Part shown: positions 1 to 56,280 of the stretch, piece by piece | Position numbering within the stretch: position 1 is the stretch's first letter | How the letters are laid out: each line of letters starts with the position of its first letter | Assembly (NCBI GenBank): GCA_043732305.1 | Contig: JAYTHU010000170.1 | Span: 6,374-70,373, forward strand | Direction: 5' to 3' | Length of the DNA: 64,000 nt | Source of the DNA: Oligoflexia bacterium | Lineage (GTDB): Bacteria; Bdellovibrionota; Bdellovibrionia; JABDDW01 | Translations under genes and position numbers: made by a program | The notes under the pieces: model-generated | Database searches by the model: none | The model's input: only the letters and a program-made list of their open reading frames with translations | Told to the model about the DNA's origin: nothing

Positions 1-479
1 GCACTTTGCGGAGGAGTATCTCTCCCATCAGTAATCACATGAATGTAGATATTTTTTTTGACATTTAATCTTTGAGCGGCTTCAAGCAGTAAAAAAAGAT
101 GATCGCAATGTGAATGGACCCCGCCATCACTGAGTAAACCCATGATATGGAGCGAACCTTCAGGAGACGTCATGACTCTTTTCACATCAGCAAGAGTTTC
201 AAAACCTTTCTCTTGAGCAAAATCACCGATCTTAGTGAATTCCTGTTTGATGATTCGACCACTTCCGATATTGAGATGACCAACTTCGCTATTACCCATG
301 ACACCTGGAGGAAGTCCAACGGCTGTGCCACTGGTGGTGATCAAGGAATGAGGATAGTTTTTTTCCATCTCATCTAAATTTGGTTTTTCCGCTTCGAAGA
401 TGGCGTTGTGTTCTTTGGTTTCAGAATGACCATATCCATCGAGAATTATCAGAATTGCTTTTCTAGTTGCATCACTCAT
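1..479 (-). CDS. gpmI: 2,3-bisphosphoglycerate-independent phosphoglycerate mutase, N-terminal part (runs off the window edge)
   Basis: Reverse-strand translation from the ATG (complement of 477-479) reads MSDATRKAILIILDGYGHSETKEHNAIFEAEKPNLDEM...GNSEVGHLNIGSGRI...LLSDGGVHSH, the typical iPGM N-terminus. No stop before position 1. Confidence 0.8.
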   Translation of the reverse strand, partial: MSDATRKAILIILDGYGHSETKEHNAIFEAEKPNLDEMEKNYPHSLITTSGTAVGLPPGVMGNSEVGHLNIGSGRIIKQEFTKIGDFAQEKGFETLADVKRVMTSPEGSLHIMGLLSDGGVHSHCDHLFLLLEAAQRLNVKKNIYIHVITDGRDTPPQS

Positions 480-942
480 TGTGATATTGAATCCCTTTTA
501 AAATTGTCATTGCCCTATAAACTTGCTCCAAAATCACCGCCATTGCAAGATGATGATTGAGGATCATTTCAGACAATTTGATCTTAAAATCTGCACGATT
601 CTTAACCGCATCGCCAACTCCATAAGCTCCACCAATGATGAAAATGAGCCGTTTCTTACCAGTTTGCATCCACTGGTTCATCTTTTTTGAAAACTCCATA
701 GATGTGACAGCTTTACCATTTTCATCACAAAGGACGACGTAATCTTCATTGCAAATGAATTCAAGAAACTTTTCAGTCTCCGCTTTAATTTTGGCAGTTT
801 TTTCTGATCGAGCAGAAGCTTTTGTTGAGAGGCATTTCACTTCGGTTTGAAACCAAAACGAAAGTTTTTTCTCATAATCCTTTTTCACCGCTTCAAGCCA
901 GTCTGGCAGACTCGAACTAGCGGTGACAAAGATTAATTTCAA
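472..942 (-). CDS. rlmH: 23S rRNA (pseudouridine1915-N3)-methyltransferase RlmH (SPOUT family)
   Basis: 156 aa, RLIFIIGGAYGV...ILNHHLAMAVILEQVYRA motif typical of RlmH/YbeA. Follows rsfS as in many bacteria. Confidence 0.85.
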   Translation of the reverse strand: MKLIFVTASSSLPDWLEAVKKDYEKKLSFWFQTEVKCLSTKASARSEKTAKIKAETEKFLEFICNEDYVVLCDENGKAVTSMEFSKKMNQWMQTGKKRLIFIIGGAYGVGDAVKNRADFKIKLSEMILNHHLAMAVILEQVYRAMTILKGIQYHNE

Positions 943-2309
943 TTCTTCCGAGCTTCTTTTTGGTCGTCTTTTTTCGCGACGGGCTTAGCTTCTAGAGTTT
1001 TTTTGGAACCCTGTGGTGGGAGTTCGTTTTGAATCTGGGGACAATCTCTCCACAGCTCTTCGATTCGATATTGGCCTCTCATCGCATCTTCGAAAACGTG
1101 AATCACGACGCCACCGTAATCTATCAAAACCCAGTGACCTTCGCGAGCGCCTTCAAAACTGATGGGACCTATTCCATACTCTTCCTTCACGCGCTCAACC
1201 ACATTGTGAGCGACCGAGATGGCGTGACGTGTGCTTGTTCCACTGCAGATAACGGAGAAGTCTGCGTATGTGTTCATAGCTTGCATGTCGTAAACTTTAA
1301 GAGCAATGCCCTTGAGATCTTGAGCAGCACGGCCACAGAAAAGTGAGAATTCTTTGTAGTCTTTGACCGCAGGAACGCTACGTTTGTAGAAACCTTTTTC
1401 ATTGATAAGGTCTAAGACCTGAGGGGAAACCATAGTTCTGGCATCACCACCGGCTCGTAATCTTTTTCTGATATCGGTCGATGAAACATTGATATCGTCA
1501 AGCTCAACCAATTCGATTGTGCGTTTGGTTTTCAGCTTGATGACTTTTCCATCGCTGGACGCAACATACTTTTCAAGTTCAGGATGAAGATCTTCCGCGA
1601 AGAGCGAAAGTTCAGTTCCAGGACGAGAAGTCACGATGAAATTTGCAAGCTTCAAAAGCTTAGGGAAATCTCTCCAAGTATGAAGATTCTTAAACGAGTC
1701 TGCACCAATGATGAAAAACAAATTGTCTGCATTATGAGTTTTGTTAAAAGCTTCCAAGGTGTCGACAGTGAAGCTTGTGCCACCACGTTTAATTTCTAGG
1801 TCGTCTGTTTGCAATTCAGGCTGATAAGCACTGACCGCAGCATCAATAAGTAAAAGACGATCTTGTGCTGAGGGTCCAGAAACTTCTCGATGAGGCGCGC
1901 GATTGACGGGGATGAAAACAACCCGATCAAGGATCATTTCGCTTTTCACAGTCATTGCAGCATTCAAATGACCGACGTGAATGGGATTAAACGCTCCGCC
2001 GAACAAACCTAAACGCTCAGTCGATAAATTTGGATTGAGTTTTGGCTCGCGAGGGGTTTTTGTAGCCTTTGTTGCTTTAGCTACTTTTGAAGCTTTCGCG
2101 ACAACGGTTTCCTTTACAACTTTTCTTTTCGCAGCGGGCTTCTTTGAAAAAACTTCCTTAGATGCGGGCTTTTTCGAAACCTTTGCTATTTTTTTTGCCA
2201 AGACCTTCTTAGCCAAGACTTTTTTAGCAATCGGCTTCGCTTTTTTAGCGCCTATTTTTTTCTTAGGTGTGGGCTTTTTAGTTTTTGTTTTCTTCATTAT
2301 TTTTTTCAT
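939..2309 (-). CDS. nadD: Nicotinate-nucleotide adenylyltransferase (NadD) fused in frame to ribosomal silencing factor RsfS, with a ~100 aa Lys/Ala-rich N-terminal extension
   Basis: A single 456 aa ORF. Residues 1-100 are KKxAKK repeats. The middle has GGAFNPIHVGHL...ADNLFFIIGADSF...STDIRKRL (NadD). The C-terminus has ALKVYDMQAMNTYADFSVICSGTSTRHAISVAHNVVERVKE...VVIHVFEDAMRGQYRIEELW (RsfS/iojap). There is no stop codon between the two parts. Confidence 0.75.
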   Translation of the reverse strand: MKKIMKKTKTKKPTPKKKIGAKKAKPIAKKVLAKKVLAKKIAKVSKKPASKEVFSKKPAAKRKVVKETVVAKASKVAKATKATKTPREPKLNPNLSTERLGLFGGAFNPIHVGHLNAAMTVKSEMILDRVVFIPVNRAPHREVSGPSAQDRLLLIDAAVSAYQPELQTDDLEIKRGGTSFTVDTLEAFNKTHNADNLFFIIGADSFKNLHTWRDFPKLLKLANFIVTSRPGTELSLFAEDLHPELEKYVASSDGKVIKLKTKRTIELVELDDINVSSTDIRKRLRAGGDARTMVSPQVLDLINEKGFYKRSVPAVKDYKEFSLFCGRAAQDLKGIALKVYDMQAMNTYADFSVICSGTSTRHAISVAHNVVERVKEEYGIGPISFEGAREGHWVLIDYGGVVIHVFEDAMRGQYRIEELWRDCPQIQNELPPQGSKKTLEAKPVAKKDDQKEARKN

Positions 2310-3318
2310 CGAGCATCCTCGTCATGCGGTCAACCAGTTCTTTGATACCAAAGCCAGCGACTGCGGAAATAAAGTGGGGAATAATCTGTTTTCGTTTAAA
2401 TTTCTGAGTGATCTCTTGCTTCTTCGCGTCGGACAAAACATCTGCTTTGTTCACGACTACCAATTGTTTGCGCGGAGAAAGCTCAAAGAAATCTTCTTGG
2501 TTTCTTTTGCTCTTGTCATAAAGTTTTAGCTCTTGATTGATGTCATCAAAATCTTGAATAGGATCGCGACCTGTGTGATCAGAGCCGTCCACCAAATGAA
2601 CAAAGAATTTTGTGCGTTCGATGTGCTTCAAAAATTTTATTCCAAGTCCAGCACCCTCATGTGCACCTTTGATCAATCCTGGAATATCGGCCACAACAAA
2701 ACTCTTTTCATGACCTTGAACAACACCAAGATTTGGAACCAATGTCGTGAAAGGATAATCTGCAATTTTTGGTTTAGCCGCTGAGATGCGAGAGATCAGT
2801 GTGGACTTACCTGCGTTTGGAAATCCGATGATTCCTACATCAGCGAGAAGTTTAAGTTCTAATCTGATTTCAGCTTCATCTCCAGGTTCGCCAGGCTGAG
2901 AAAACTTAGGTGCTTGATTGACACTGTTTTTGAAAAAGTCGTTTCCTTTTCCGCCGCGTCCGCCTGTGAAAAAAGTGAACTCTTGATTGATTCCACTCAG
3001 ATCAGCAATAACTTCGCCGTTTTCTTTTTTGATAATAGTTCCGACAGGCAAAACAATGATGACGTCTGCTCCATTATGACCAGTCATATTTTGTTTGGAA
3101 CCGGGATCACCGTCAGCAGCAATGAATCGTCGATTGAATTTGAAATCGAGAAGAGTTCCGATCTGGGCGTTGGTGCGAAAAATAACATCGCCGCCTTTGC
3201 CGCCATCCCCACCATCGGGGCCGCCGCGAGGAACAAATTTTTCCCTGCGCCAAGAAACTGCGCCGGCACCACCATGACCAGATTTTACATAGATCTTACA
3301 TTCGTCAATAAACTTCAT
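2278..3318 (-). CDS. obg: GTPase Obg/CgtA
   Basis: MKFIDECKIYVKSGHGGAGAVSWRREKF (Obg fold N-domain) plus G-domain GFPNAGKSTL, DIPGLIKGA and NKAD. 346 aa. Confidence 0.9.
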   Translation of the reverse strand: MKFIDECKIYVKSGHGGAGAVSWRREKFVPRGGPDGGDGGKGGDVIFRTNAQIGTLLDFKFNRRFIAADGDPGSKQNMTGHNGADVIIVLPVGTIIKKENGEVIADLSGINQEFTFFTGGRGGKGNDFFKNSVNQAPKFSQPGEPGDEAEIRLELKLLADVGIIGFPNAGKSTLISRISAAKPKIADYPFTTLVPNLGVVQGHEKSFVVADIPGLIKGAHEGAGLGIKFLKHIERTKFFVHLVDGSDHTGRDPIQDFDDINQELKLYDKSKRNQEDFFELSPRKQLVVVNKADVLSDAKKQEITQKFKRKQIIPHFISAVAGFGIKELVDRMTRMLDEKNNEENKN

Positions 3319-3360
3319 AGATCAAACTTCCTAAAACACGTTTCCAAAGACAACTTCTTA

Positions 3361-3393
3361 AAACAAAAAAAGGGGTGAGATTAACTCTCACCC
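3361..3393 (-). terminator. Rho-independent terminator or attenuator between rpmA and obg
   Basis: GGGGTGAGA-ttaac-TCTCACCCC perfect 9-bp stem at 3371-3393. On the minus strand it is followed by TTTTTTTGTT (plus-strand A-run 3361-3370). Confidence 0.55.
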
Positions 3394-3417
3394 CTTAGAG
3401 CTAAACTTTTTTAATAA

Positions 3418-3672
3418 TTAAGCGGGCAGAACACTCACGGCTTGACGTGTTTTTGTCTTTCTCGTGAATGTCACTTTGCCTTCAATCAAAGCATAGATGG
3501 TGAAATCGCGGCCAACGCCAACGTTTGCACCGGGGTGAAACTGAGTTCCTCGTTGACGAACAATGATGGTTCCTGGCTGAACCGTTTCGCCGCCGAAGCG
3601 TTTGACACCTAGTCTTTGACTATTAGAATCTCGACCGTTTCTAGTACTACCACCAGCTTTTTTTGTTGCCAT
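3418..3672 (-). CDS. rpmA: 50S ribosomal protein L27
   Basis: [29 protein letters not shown]...[11 protein letters not shown] is canonical L27. Confidence 0.9.
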
Positions 3673-3711
3673 TTCTATCCTCTAAATTTCTATTCGCAAA
3701 TGCTTTGCGTT

Positions 3712-4287
3712 TTATTTTTTAGCTTTTTTAGTTGCTGCTTTTTTTGGCGCAGCTTTCTTTTTACCGACGCTCTTTTTCTTAGCGGCTCCGCCTTTTTTTG
3801 CAGAAGCAGCTTTTTTAGCTGGTTTCTCGACTGCGGGCTCTTCGCCGTTGGCGACAGCTAAACGAGCAAGTCTTGTTCTTTCTCTTTGCGCTTCGCTAGC
3901 TGCTACTTTTCTAGCTTCAATGCGAGCTGCGTCCCAAACGTTGGGTTCGCCTTCGGCTTTGAAACTTGCACCAGCAGATGCGATTTCAGTGACAAAGAGT
4001 CTGGTCAACTCTGAACGGTGACCTCTCATTTTGCGATATTTGTGACGTCTTTTCTTCTTATAGACTAAGACTTTTTCTCCACGAAACTGACGTTCAATCA
4101 CAACAGTGACTGTAGCTCCGGAAACATGAGGTGCGCCTACGAGCAATTTTTCTCCACCGATCATCAAAACTTCGGTGATAGTGATTTTGTCTCCGGGGTT
4201 ACCATCTAATTTTTCAACACTCAGTGAGTCGCCAGCGGAAACTCTATACTGTCTGCCACTTGTTTTAATAACGGCGTATGGGATCAT
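3712..4287 (-). CDS. rplU: 50S ribosomal protein L21 with a ~90 aa Lys/Ala-rich C-terminal extension
   Basis: Starts at the internal ATG (MIPYAVIKTSGRQYRV...), which is preceded by AAGGAG. The L21 core is about 103 aa and is followed by AKKAASAKKGGAAKKKSVGKKKAAPKKAATKKAKK. Confidence 0.85.
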   Translation of the reverse strand: MIPYAVIKTSGRQYRVSAGDSLSVEKLDGNPGDKITITEVLMIGGEKLLVGAPHVSGATVTVVIERQFRGEKVLVYKKKRRHKYRKMRGHRSELTRLFVTEIASAGASFKAEGEPNVWDAARIEARKVAASEAQRERTRLARLAVANGEEPAVEKPAKKAASAKKGGAAKKKSVGKKKAAPKKAATKKAKK

Positions 4288-4376
4288 CGTTCTACTCCTT
4301 AAAATGCAATCTGAACTCAACGTTTTGCCACGGAAAGACTTGGGTTGTCAATGTATTAGACCGTTTCGCAAAAGAC

Positions 4377-5909
4377 TTAGCCATCTTGTGCCTTGGAAAT
4401 CACTTCAAACTGCTCCAAATGGAAGGTGGATTCAGTCTTTATGACAACGGGGCGGCCAAGATTTTTCTCGGTTTGTTCAAGCATTTCGCGCTCTTCGTCA
4501 TAAAGCCAATCGGCCACTTCGGGATGAACATGGATTTGGGTAGAGGCGGCGCTCTTGATACGAAGTTCTCTTTGAAGTTCTCGGAAAATTTCATAGCAGA
4601 TTGTTGTTTTGCTTTTAATGTAGCCTTTGCCATCGCAATAATTGCAAGGCTCGCACAATGTTCGAGTGAGACTTTCGCGCGTCCGCTTTCGAGTCATTTC
4701 AACCAATCCGAGAGAAGACATATTCAGCACATTGGTTTTTGCGCGATCTTTCAAGAGCTCTTCTTTGATAGCCGACAGAACTTTTTCTCGATTGGTTTCT
4801 TTTTCCATATCGATAAAATCCAAAATAATAATGCCGCCGCAATTGCGAAGCCTCAATTGATAAGCGATTTCTTTAACAGCTTCTAAATTTGTTTTGATGA
4901 TTGTGTCTTCTAGATTATGTCGACCAACATAGCGACCAGTGTTTACATCGATCGCGACTAAAGCTTCAGCTTCGTCGACTATGATGTAGCCACCACTCTT
5001 GAGCCAAACTTTTCGGCCTAGTGCTCGAGATATTTCCAACTCGATTCCAAAACTATCAAAAATAGGTTCTTCACCTTGATAAAGTTCAATATTATTTTTT
5101 AGCCGAGGCATAAATTGATTCACAAATTTGAGAACTTTTTTATGCGCTTTAGGATCATCGATGATCAGACGCTTCACATCATCAGTGAACAAATCGCGAA
5201 CTCCACGAAGCTCTACATCTAATTCTTCGTGAACTGTTCCTGCACCTTGTTTTTTCTCATAACTTCGCTGCACTTCTTTCCAAAGCCTGGTGAGATATTC
5301 CATGTCTGACTTGATTGATTTTTGACTGATGCCTTCACAAGCGGTTCGAATAATAAATCCGCCCTCAGGTGGCCTGAAAGAACTGACCACGTCTTTGAGA
5401 CGCTTGCGTTCCGCTTCACTTTCGATGCGGCGAGAAACGCCGATGTGATTGACGGTAGGCATGTACACTAAGTTTCGACCAGGCAAGCTGATGTGAGTGG
5501 TGATGCGCGCACCTTTTGTGCCAATGGAATCCTTAGCCACTTGAACTAGAATCTCTTGTCCCTCTTTGACTAAATCTTGAATGGGGGGAAGATTCGAACC
5601 GGAGGGTTTGTTTTGTTGAAGATTTTGATGTTTCTGACCTTCTTCATCGCTAACCAAATCTTCCTCATCCTCGGTAAATTCATGAGCACGAATGTCACCG
5701 ACGTATAGGAATGCGGCACGATCTAGACCAATGTCCACAAAGCAAGCTTGCATGCCAGGGAGAACGCGAATTATTTTTCCTTTGAAAACAGATCCAACTA
5801 GACCTTTTTCTCGAGAGCGCTCCACCAAAAGATCAGTAATGACCCCATTTTCTACAAAGGCCACGCGAGTTTCGACCGGAGTCGAGTTGATGACTAATTC
5901 TGACGGCAT
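4377..5909 (-). CDS. rng: Ribonuclease G/E family endoribonuclease (RNase G-like, 510 aa)
   Basis: S1-domain N-terminus MPSELVINSTPVETRVAFVENGVITDLLVER...GSVFKGKIIRVLPGMQACFVDIG, plus the DNase I-like catalytic region. The size matches RNase G/CafA. Confidence 0.8.
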   Translation of the reverse strand: MPSELVINSTPVETRVAFVENGVITDLLVERSREKGLVGSVFKGKIIRVLPGMQACFVDIGLDRAAFLYVGDIRAHEFTEDEEDLVSDEEGQKHQNLQQNKPSGSNLPPIQDLVKEGQEILVQVAKDSIGTKGARITTHISLPGRNLVYMPTVNHIGVSRRIESEAERKRLKDVVSSFRPPEGGFIIRTACEGISQKSIKSDMEYLTRLWKEVQRSYEKKQGAGTVHEELDVELRGVRDLFTDDVKRLIIDDPKAHKKVLKFVNQFMPRLKNNIELYQGEEPIFDSFGIELEISRALGRKVWLKSGGYIIVDEAEALVAIDVNTGRYVGRHNLEDTIIKTNLEAVKEIAYQLRLRNCGGIIILDFIDMEKETNREKVLSAIKEELLKDRAKTNVLNMSSLGLVEMTRKRTRESLTRTLCEPCNYCDGKGYIKSKTTICYEIFRELQRELRIKSAASTQIHVHPEVADWLYDEEREMLEQTEKNLGRPVVIKTESTFHLEQFEVISKAQDG

Positions 5910-54964: not shown

Positions 54965-55849
54965 TTAAATCGCAGTTCTCTTGTCTGTCTTCTTCCTAGT
55001 TCTAAACTGCATCCACAAATCGATGAAGCCTAGAGAAGCGACAGCCCAAAACTGCGTGAAGATTAATATATAACTTATCATTCGCCAAATAGGGCCAACT
55101 CTCTTCGTGTTAAAAAAGTTGACCACTACGGCCAAGCCCTGGAAGAAATAAAGCATGATCACAACGTTAAAAACGTTAGTGCATGTCCATTTAAGCCAAA
55201 GCGGTTCGAAATCTAGAAAATTTCCAGCTGCTGATGCGAGGGCAATCCACACAAAAGCATCAGGAAGTTTCCATTCCAAAAGTTCTTGGCTCGAAAAATG
55301 ATGAGAAAGTTTCTCTGGAGCCCATCCCAATATTTTCTCCACTCGAGGAGCGAGAATAGAATTGAGCCAAACAGAGAAAATAGTCATCATCACAATGGCT
55401 GAAGGCACCTGCTTTAAAACACTGTCTTGGTCTTGAGTGACCTCTGGAGTCACTTTGAGCTGAGTCAGGGTTTGAGCGATTTGTTCTTTGAAAAAAACAA
55501 TCGGTTGAAAACCCAAATAATGAACTGCAAAGCTTCCGAGTAAAAAGCCAACTCCGGCAAGAACAATCACTGTTACAAAAATAGAAGCCGTATAACCAAT
55601 GTTCGAATTTTCACACTCGGTAAGCACAACGGTTAAAATAGCCGCTGCACCAAAAGACATCGCAACCACTAACGGCGCCAAAAAATAAAGGGCTACCGTG
55701 CCTGCTAACGCCGCCGCTAATAAAGCGAGGCGACCTTCTTTTCTTCTGAGTACCAGAAGAGGAAGGGGCGCTAGAAAAACTGTCGTCACTGAAAACGCAA
55801 CGGCGGTCAATCCAGAAAGCAAAGTGTGGAGGAGTCTTCGAGTCTGCAT
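54965..55849 (-). CDS. Polytopic membrane protein, possibly DUF2232/YybS-like
   Basis: 294 aa with 7 or more hydrophobic helices. It occupies the position between rpsF and rplI-dnaB that YybS (DUF2232) holds in the Firmicutes rpsF...yybS-gdpP-rplI-dnaC locus. The family call is by context only. Confidence 0.45.
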   Translation of the reverse strand: MQTRRLLHTLLSGLTAVAFSVTTVFLAPLPLLVLRRKEGRLALLAAALAGTVALYFLAPLVVAMSFGAAAILTVVLTECENSNIGYTASIFVTVIVLAGVGFLLGSFAVHYLGFQPIVFFKEQIAQTLTQLKVTPEVTQDQDSVLKQVPSAIVMMTIFSVWLNSILAPRVEKILGWAPEKLSHHFSSQELLEWKLPDAFVWIALASAAGNFLDFEPLWLKWTCTNVFNVVIMLYFFQGLAVVVNFFNTKRVGPIWRMISYILIFTQFWAVASLGFIDLWMQFRTRKKTDKRTAI

Positions 55850-55851
55850 TC

Positions 55852-56280
55852 TTATTCTTCGGATTCGGGAACTTCTTCTTCAACTTGTTGCTGACGACGT
55901 GCTTTTTCTTCTTCTGCACGTTCTTTTTCGCGCTTAGCACGAGCTTCCAATTTTCCTTTGTAAGCAGCAATTGCAGCCATAGGATCAACTTTGTCGTCGA
56001 TCTTAACTGTCAAGAATCTGAAAATATCTTCATTGATTCTCATGCTTCTTTCAAGCTCAGCAACCGCAGTGGTGTCAGCATTGAAAGTCATGCAGAAGTA
56101 ATGACCTTTGAGTTCTTTTTGAATGGGATATGTGAGTTTCTTTTTTCCCCAATCGTCCATATTGAGAAGTTTGCCTTTGGCAGCTTCAATGATGGATTTA
56201 TTTTTGTTATGAAGCTCGACCATGCGAGGTTCAGTAGCATTGGGATTGGTGATAAAAATAGTCTCGTAGTTACGAGTCAT
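55852..56280 (-). CDS. rpsF: 30S ribosomal protein S6 (acidic C-terminal tail)
   Basis: MTRNYETIFITNPN...DWGKKKLTYPIQKELKGHYFCMTFNAD...ELERSMRINEDIFRFL. Confidence 0.85.
   Translation of the reverse strand: MTRNYETIFITNPNATEPRMVELHNKNKSIIEAAKGKLLNMDDWGKKKLTYPIQKELKGHYFCMTFNADTTAVAELERSMRINEDIFRFLTVKIDDKVDPMAAIAAYKGKLEARAKREKERAEEEKARRQQQVEEEVPESEE

Follow-up and report, generated by a model that had tools for sequence, protein, structure and literature searches.

Does the reading frame at positions 939..2309 of this DNA encode one genuine protein, in which an enzyme of nicotinamide adenine dinucleotide (NAD) synthesis, a ribosome silencing factor and a strongly basic leader are joined, and what might such a protein do? 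The window, by which we mean the whole stretch of 64,000 nucleotides (nt) that was analysed, belongs to a contig of an Oligoflexia bacterium (JAYTHU010000170.1), and all coordinates are positions within it. NadD converts nicotinate mononucleotide (NaMN) and adenosine triphosphate (ATP) to nicotinate adenine dinucleotide (NaAD) and pyrophosphate and is normally essential, and RsfS binds uL14 at the interface of the 50S ribosomal subunit, where it blocks joining of the 30S subunit during starvation and late assembly. We consider it likely that the locus is a genuine gene, nadD-rsfS, whose product is a single polypeptide (tail, NadD and RsfS) encoded in a 50S-biogenesis gene string of a Bdellovibrionota (Oligoflexia-like) bacterium.

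A complete NadD and a complete RsfS in one reading frame

The open reading frame (ORF) listing of the window gave a single uninterrupted ORF of 456 amino acids (aa) with an ATG start at 939..2309 on the minus strand. Along it lie, in order, a 96-aa Lys/Ala-rich leader, NadD, a linker, RsfS and a short disordered C-terminal tail. The sequence-only reading of this DNA had described a leader, a whole NadD and a whole RsfS in one frame, and the ORF listing, the profile matches and the solved chains all bear this out. The parts of the gene are as follows.

2316..2320, minus strand: Shine-Dalgarno-like GAGGA, with a 6-nt spacer to the ATG at 2309, in the 3' end of obg
2022..2309, minus strand: polycationic Lys/Ala/Pro/Thr/Val-rich N-terminal tail, predicted disordered, codons 1-96 (composition, AlphaFold2, start codons)
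1380..2021, minus strand: NadD (nicotinate-nucleotide adenylyltransferase) domain, aa 97-310 (NCBIfam equivalogs, PDB chains, Foldseek, motifs)
1359..1379, minus strand: interdomain linker, aa 311-317 (RSVPAVKD region), roughly 10 residues (alignments, start-codon scan, model confidence)
1035..1358, minus strand: RsfS/iojap ribosome silencing factor domain, aa 318-425 (Pfam, NCBIfam, PDB chains, model confidence)
939..1034, minus strand: disordered mixed-charge C-terminal tail, aa 426-456, and TGA stop (model confidence, ORF coordinates)

Pfam placed CTP_transf_like at aa 102-283 (71.9 bits) and RsfS (PF02410) at aa 327-420 (87.2 bits against a cut-off of 21.6, profile positions 5-98 of 98). 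Two NCBIfam NadD equivalogs covered aa 97-310 over the full length of their profiles and scored above their cut-offs, namely NF000840 (169.7 against 150, positions 5-200 of 201) and TIGR00482 (145.8 against 112.45, positions 1-194 of 194), as did the rsfS equivalog TIGR00090 (87.9 against 56.9, positions 7-99 of 99). The NadD half aligned end to end with solved chains from E. coli (1k4k, residues 6-213 of 213) and P. aeruginosa (1yul), the sequence match to the PDB NadD chains reaching E = 1e-28. The RsfS half aligned likewise with the E. coli RsfS chain (7bl2 family, residues 14-104 of 105, E = 4e-17), and the S. aureus and M. tuberculosis RsfS chains were also matched. Because both alignments run from end to end, both halves are complete.

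The functional motifs are in place. The ATP-binding motif of NadD, GGAFNPIHVGH, occupies aa 104-114 (HVGH at aa 111-114), and its C-terminal SxTxxR motif reads SSTDIR at aa 276-281; H111, G113, H114, S276 and R281 are kept in 108-113 of 114 fused homologues. The core RsfS motifs DYG, HVF and ...LW are present, and D397, G399, H404 and F406 were invariant in all 114 homologues.

An AlphaFold2 model was built with the 114-sequence alignment and had a mean predicted local distance difference test (pLDDT) score of 84. Residues 98-306 (NadD) and 318-425 (RsfS) were mostly modelled at pLDDT above 90 and the linker between them at 81-92. Leader residues 1-95 had no secondary structure (pLDDT 45-57), and the C-terminal 30 residues or so were disordered (pLDDT 48-68); the end of this C-terminal tail reads ...AAGAATTGAAATT and its length varies among homologues. 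In Foldseek, the NadD half fell on solved NadD structures with target template modelling (TM) scores of 0.82-0.92, and no solved chain spanned both halves. This comparison was dominated by the NadD half, so RsfS is assigned its fold through its sequence matches to solved chains of the family; in the model that half showed alternating helices and strands, consistent with the compact alpha/beta fold of the family. As judged from its motifs and its predicted fold, the NadD half is an intact enzyme.

The fusion is shared by related Bdellovibrionota

The same gene was found in a separate Logan assembly, where a contig of run SRR22198290 was 100% identical to window positions 133..5309 (5177 nt); this contig possibly derives from the same reads as the source genome, and its agreement excludes a fault of assembly, whereas a systematic error in the reads could have passed into both. 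A protein search recovered at least 114 protein clusters carrying both Pfam domains, at 31-67% identity to the window protein, and the NadD/RsfS junction was free of gaps in alignments of 27 and of 114 fused homologues, with Y308 and D317 at the junction nearly invariant. The close relatives that bear names are metagenome-assembled genomes (MAGs) of Oligoflexia, a class within Bdellovibrionota.

To place the arrangement among bacteria, hidden Markov models built from the two halves were run against stop-to-stop ORFs of 80 loci on contigs representing one genome per species. Among the loci listed, both domains lay in one ORF at all five from Bdellovibrionota (Bdellovibrionales, Pseudobdellovibrio and Pseudobdellovibrionaceae MAGs), a sample of five species and too small to show that every member of the phylum has the fusion. 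Elsewhere, 0 of 75 loci were fused; 65 had a separate rsfS nearby and 10 had none in the stretch fetched. The earlier expectation that nadD and rsfS are separate genes in most bacteria thus agrees with this sample, and the alignment with related NadD and RsfS proteins that the sequence-only reading had proposed shows Bdellovibrionota relatives with the same fusion and a gap-free junction. These distributions point to a fusion that is ancestral to a large Bdellovibrionota clade and is the conserved state in this phylum.

At 17 of the 75 non-fused loci (L007-L081), nadD and rsfS stand in the same frame with a single stop between them, so that loss of one stop could create a fusion. This same-frame, one-stop arrangement may explain why nadD-rsfS fusions have arisen repeatedly.

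A free RsfS made by internal initiation was ruled out for this gene: no ATG, GTG or TTG occurs between codons 294 and 341, and the alignment contained no conserved Met or Val at the junction. For want of an internal start codon, RsfS exists here only as part of the fusion.

Proposed function of the fused protein

Most likely, on the evidence of its domains, the protein combines a catalytically active NadD with a 50S anti-association factor, the tail serving as an electrostatic tether to ribosomal RNA (rRNA). By family homology, the NadD half would still adenylylate NaMN for NAD synthesis, and the RsfS half would bind uL14 on free or late-assembling 50S subunits and block joining of the 30S subunit. 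The fused 24-kDa NadD body could add steric bulk at the subunit interface, and the tail, with its charge of +33, might act as a non-specific tether to rRNA that raises the local concentration of the protein on 50S particles. Fusion would also fix synthesis of the two activities at 1:1.

The gene lies in the string RNase E/G-family gene, rplU-rpmA-obg-(nadD-rsfS)-rlmH, which is conserved in relatives.

3712..4320, minus strand: rplU (bL21), first ribosomal-protein gene of the string (Pfam Ribosomal_L21p at aa 15-113)
3418..3672, minus strand: rpmA (bL27), between rplU and obg (ORF listing; the identical locus L001 is PF01016, Ribosomal_L27)
2278..3318, minus strand: obg (GTPase ObgE/CgtA), upstream gene (Pfam GTP1_OBG, 194 bits, and MMR_HSR1)
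472..942, minus strand: rlmH (23S rRNA m3-pseudouridine-1915 methyltransferase), downstream gene (SPOUT_MTase, residues 1-154 of 154, 146 bits)

The product of rplU is tailed as well. In the window, bL21 extends 77 residues past its conserved core and the last 40 or so C-terminal residues are Lys/Ala-rich; across loci the extension measures 54-92 residues past the core and ends in a Lys/Ala run (...AKKAASAKKGGAAKKKSVGKKKAAPKKAATKKAKK). A K/A-rich bL21 C-terminus was present in 9/9 related loci (L002-L006, L082, L083 and L085 among them), including those with a tail-less NadD-RsfS, and a scan for Lys-dense segments found clear Lys/Ala-type tails in the 64-kb window on NadD-RsfS and bL21 only. 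Lys/Ala-rich tails are a habit of the lineage, as the tailed bL21 of the same operon illustrates, and the bL21 tail presumably tethers in the same manner. The start of rplU is ambiguous, the longest ORF giving 202 aa and another gene caller 191 aa (window start 4287).

The tail could instead be a DNA- or nucleoid-binding or polyphosphate (polyP)-binding module, like those of Hc1/Hc2 and AlgP, that directs the protein to the nucleoid or to granules of polyP. Polycations bind any polyanion. AlgP, which is histone-H1-like, is said in the title of a paper (PMC9239181) to affect the spacing of polyP granules. In favour of such a module, the composition resembles that of histone-H1-like bacterial proteins, and a faint match was obtained to HC2 (PF07382), the only Pfam family matched by the tail. 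However, this match scored 11.5 bits against a gathering score of 40 (E = 0.32) and is insignificant; both folded domains and all neighbouring genes indicate the 50S subunit, and the other K/A-tailed protein of the window is ribosomal. We regard a nucleoid or polyP role as unlikely, and homology of the tail to histone-H1-like families was rejected. The label 'histone-H1-like' given in the sequence-only reading fits as a description of composition but does not extend beyond it. Chlamydia Hc1/Hc2, Pseudomonas AlgP and the basic extensions of ribosomal proteins are likewise K/A/P-rich, low in complexity, disordered and strongly cationic; compared with Hc1/Hc2 and AlgP, the tail has no detectable homology and stands on an enzyme-silencing-factor fusion rather than on a nucleoid or ribosomal protein.

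In a second alternative, the NadD half has given up its mainly enzymatic role and acts as a sensor of nucleotides (ATP, NaMN or NAD), or as bulk, that gates RsfS and ties silencing to energy or NAD status. No genomic sign that two functions are linked is stronger than a fusion, and earlier authors left this one unexplained (PMC3351149); moreover, the short, conserved and confidently modelled linker suggests a fixed arrangement of the domains. Nevertheless, HxGH and SxTxxR are essentially invariant across the fused family, and no second nadD was found within the 64 kb searched. As NadD is normally essential, an active enzyme is the simplest reading, and loss of a mainly enzymatic role appears quite improbable. 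A related scheme, in which the tail parks the protein on rRNA or the 50S subunit and the nucleotide state of NadD (ATP, NaMN, NaAD) gates the engagement of uL14 by a rigidly linked RsfS, would make the protein a ribosome-resident sensor-effector; we hold this, too, to be rather doubtful. The reading we retain is that of an active NadD joined to an anti-association factor.

Composition and probable translation of the basic leader

Residues 1-96 comprise 34 K, 2 R, 14 A and 3 E, with a net charge of +33. The sequence-only reading had described about 100 aa of KKxAKK repeats; the Lys/Ala-rich stretch of that length stood, but regular repeat units did not, the leader being a low-complexity sequence in which Tandem Repeats Finder detected one 15-nt duplication (KKVLA). 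An origin by regular tandem repetition was rejected on this ground.

The earlier statement that the NadD core has no nearby in-frame ATG, and that the only local alternative is a TTG that truncates strand beta-1, held up in a codon scan. Upstream of the core, in-frame starts are limited to ATG1 (2309), ATG5, TTG32 and TTG37, the next being TTG102. The latter falls inside ...RLG|LFGG..., has no Shine-Dalgarno sequence, and initiation there would remove the (I/V)G(I/L) of strand beta-1. Tail-less homologues begin two residues before (I/V)G(I/L)FGG, which indicates that the strand belongs to the conserved NadD domain. To keep NadD intact, some 60 or more leader residues must be translated. The 20 nt upstream of the ATG at 2309, CCGCATGACGAGGATGCTCG, include GAGGA with a 6-nt spacer. 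As had been noted from the sequence, this ATG lies 32 nt inside the 3' end of obg (2278..3318), in another frame.

Relatives are organized in the same way. In L082 (65% identical), two ATGs heading a tail of 55-58 residues are the sole starts between the upstream stop and the core, and L083 has one ATG heading a 27-residue tail and the equivalent of the truncating TTG, with no further starts. Both loci carry GAGGA/AGGA + 6 nt + ATG AAR AAA at the head of the tail, the Shine-Dalgarno arrangement seen in the window. At 5/5 loci examined, the tail starts at the obg stop or within the end of obg, with an overlap of 0-38 nt and no intergenic DNA; the last 32 nt of obg overlap the fusion start in the window, and obg is the same neighbour in L082-L085 (0-38 nt).

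In a neighbour-joining tree calculated from the folded regions, the clade of the window had 13 members, each with a polycationic tail (15-99 residues), and the tail of the window was the longest of these. Two or three further clades contain tailed members as well, some of whose tails begin with a common MKSVKKSS, and relatives that share only 33-67% identity repeat the in-frame K/A/P/T composition. A second tail-bearing group shares the N-terminus (M/L)KS(V/A)KKSS (P0015, P0031, P0051, P0092 and L085, 2459-2500). At L085, a TTG lies upstream of the called GTG start and is preceded, at a distance of 7 nt, by AAGGAG; the annotation there probably omits about 12 residues of the tail.

Translation most probably starts at the ATG at 2309, and all 96 leader residues are most probably translated, to judge from start codons and relatives. 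The view that part of the basic leader is real was thereby strengthened to very probable, through the start codons, the Shine-Dalgarno sequence, the starts of relatives and the clade-wide tails. Several observations weigh against it. About 85 of the 106 fused homologues scored have a tail shorter than 15 residues; since most fused homologues do without a tail, the fusion does not need one for its core function. Gene callers also prefer the longest ORF and inflate called tails. Finally, the antisense frame of the tail is open too, so that openness of an ORF proves nothing by itself, and it scored nearly as well for codon usage (0.33 bits/codon, against 0.40 for the fusion frame, which scored best; this is weak evidence).

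These points would suit a product that starts near the NadD core, the 290 nt upstream being an A-rich spacer that is open by chance. A-rich low-complexity DNA is indeed open in several frames here, and most of the fused homologues are tail-less. Against this stand the lack of any ATG or GTG between codons 5 and 102 and the truncating TTG102 with no Shine-Dalgarno sequence, the same situation in L082 (no start between the head of the tail and the core) and L083 (the truncating TTG alone), the tails that begin exactly at the obg stop, and the recurrence of the in-frame composition in divergent relatives. An untranslated leader is consequently, in our estimate, very unlikely.

The antisense frame includes an ORF of 182 aa (1981..2529, plus strand) that overlaps obg and the NadD core and is a Phe/Leu-rich mirror of the Lys codons. 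It was treated as almost certainly spurious, and it could mislead an automatic gene caller.

The last alternative, a sequencing or assembly artefact in which a lost stop or a frameshift at the junction joined two genes, draws on the fact that one base error could mimic a fusion, given the one-frame, one-stop layout of the 17 loci from other phyla, but it is exceedingly improbable in view of the identical DNA sequence of the second assembly, the at least 114 fused clusters from many samples with their gap-free linker and nearly invariant Y308 and D317, the five fused Bdellovibrionota reference loci and the lack of a start codon for a separate RsfS. The missed stop or frameshift suspected earlier was ruled out by the second assembly and by a junction kept in these clusters, and a true in-frame NadD-RsfS fusion is supported by the same two lines of evidence together with the five loci.

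Relation to known systems

Independent fusions of nadD with ybeB (rsfS) have been described in Pedobacter heparinus, Solibacter usitatus, Clostridium phytofermentans, Rhodococcus and Coriobacteriaceae (Wanschers et al. 2012, PMC3351149), together with the conserved neighbourhood rplU-rpmA-obgE-...-nadD-ybeB-rlmH, which links nadD and ybeB to a 50S operon; the authors left the nadD-ybeB link explicitly unexplained. The architecture is consequently less unusual than the sequence-only reading had supposed, since such fusions in five lineages had already been published in 2012 (PMC3351149) and the fusion is the conserved state in the phylum of the window.

The present gene resembles the published fusions in its single reading frame, its N-terminal NadD and its position in the rplU...rlmH string, and the fusion is a further, lineage-wide member of this class. 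It differs in three respects: Bdellovibrionota are absent from the list of the paper (PMC3351149), so that this is presumably another independent fusion; it is kept throughout a large clade (at least 114 clusters); and in a subset, to which the present gene belongs, NadD is preceded by a polycationic tail of 15-99 aa, a feature on which the paper is silent. The tail is real, though variable and dispensable, and it fits the habit of the lineage. Literature searches on NadD and RsfS, on the nadD-rsfS fusion and on Bdellovibrio and nadD returned nothing specific to this lineage, and no description of a polycationic tail on NadD-RsfS was found, no literature search having been aimed at such tails.

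Compared with stand-alone RsfS (E. coli YbeB/RsfS, S. aureus and M. tuberculosis; 7bl2, 6sj6, 4wcw), the RsfS half is a full-length match that keeps the core motifs, but it is preceded covalently by a 24-kDa enzyme and the +33 tail, and a free 12-kDa form cannot be made. The NadD half shares with stand-alone NadD (E. coli 1k4k, P. aeruginosa 1yul) the fold, the HxGH/SxTxxR motifs and equivalog scores above cut-off, and differs by its N- and C-terminal additions; its activity is predicted from sequence and fold.

In the mitochondrial MALSU1 module, the steric block at the large-subunit interface is enlarged by the protein mass attached. MALSU1 was among the matches of the present RsfS domain (E = 1e-8), and the MALSU1-L0R8F8-mtACP module (PDB 5ool and others) is a second case of an RsfS-family domain with extra protein mass, although this is an analogy of mechanism only: the mitochondrial partners are separate, non-covalent and unrelated to NadD.

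Other features of the window

At the downstream end, the TGA stop of nadD-rsfS overlaps the TTG start of rlmH as TTGA, the two genes sharing 4 nt. At the upstream end, the overlap with obg (2278..2309, minus strand) is A-rich, GATGAAAAAAATAATGAAGAAAACAAAAACTAA, and encodes the acidic, Asn-rich end of Obg and, in the +1 frame, MKKIMKKTKT; its run of seven A is potentially slippery, and a -1 slip would miss the fusion frame. Neither a second copy of nadD or rsfS nor any Rfam match to a structured RNA was found anywhere in the 64-kb window. A 132-codon ORF at 55611..56009 (minus strand) contains a Lys-dense segment, TKENWKLVLSAKKNVQKKKKHVVSNKLKKK, and had no Pfam match even at E = 10. At locus L085, bL27 (1108..1398) bears a 13-residue Ala/Lys-containing C-terminal extension, KTAVAAKPAKSAA, that is missing from bL27 of the window.

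Implications

In databases, the fused proteins are labelled 'nicotinate-nucleotide adenylyltransferase' only, an annotation that hides the RsfS function. The variable tail, together with that of bL21, adds a small data point on the recruitment of disordered basic extensions to ribosome-associated proteins. The nadD-rsfS pair is among the most conserved operon associations that still lack an explanation, and a lineage with an obligatory fusion and no free RsfS offers a natural test of whether a mechanism couples NAD synthesis to ribosome silencing or the two are simply expressed together. If the sensor-effector scheme were true, the protein would couple ribosome silencing and the late steps of 50S assembly directly to NAD and energy status; among the members of this phylum are predators whose growing and non-growing phases are distinct.

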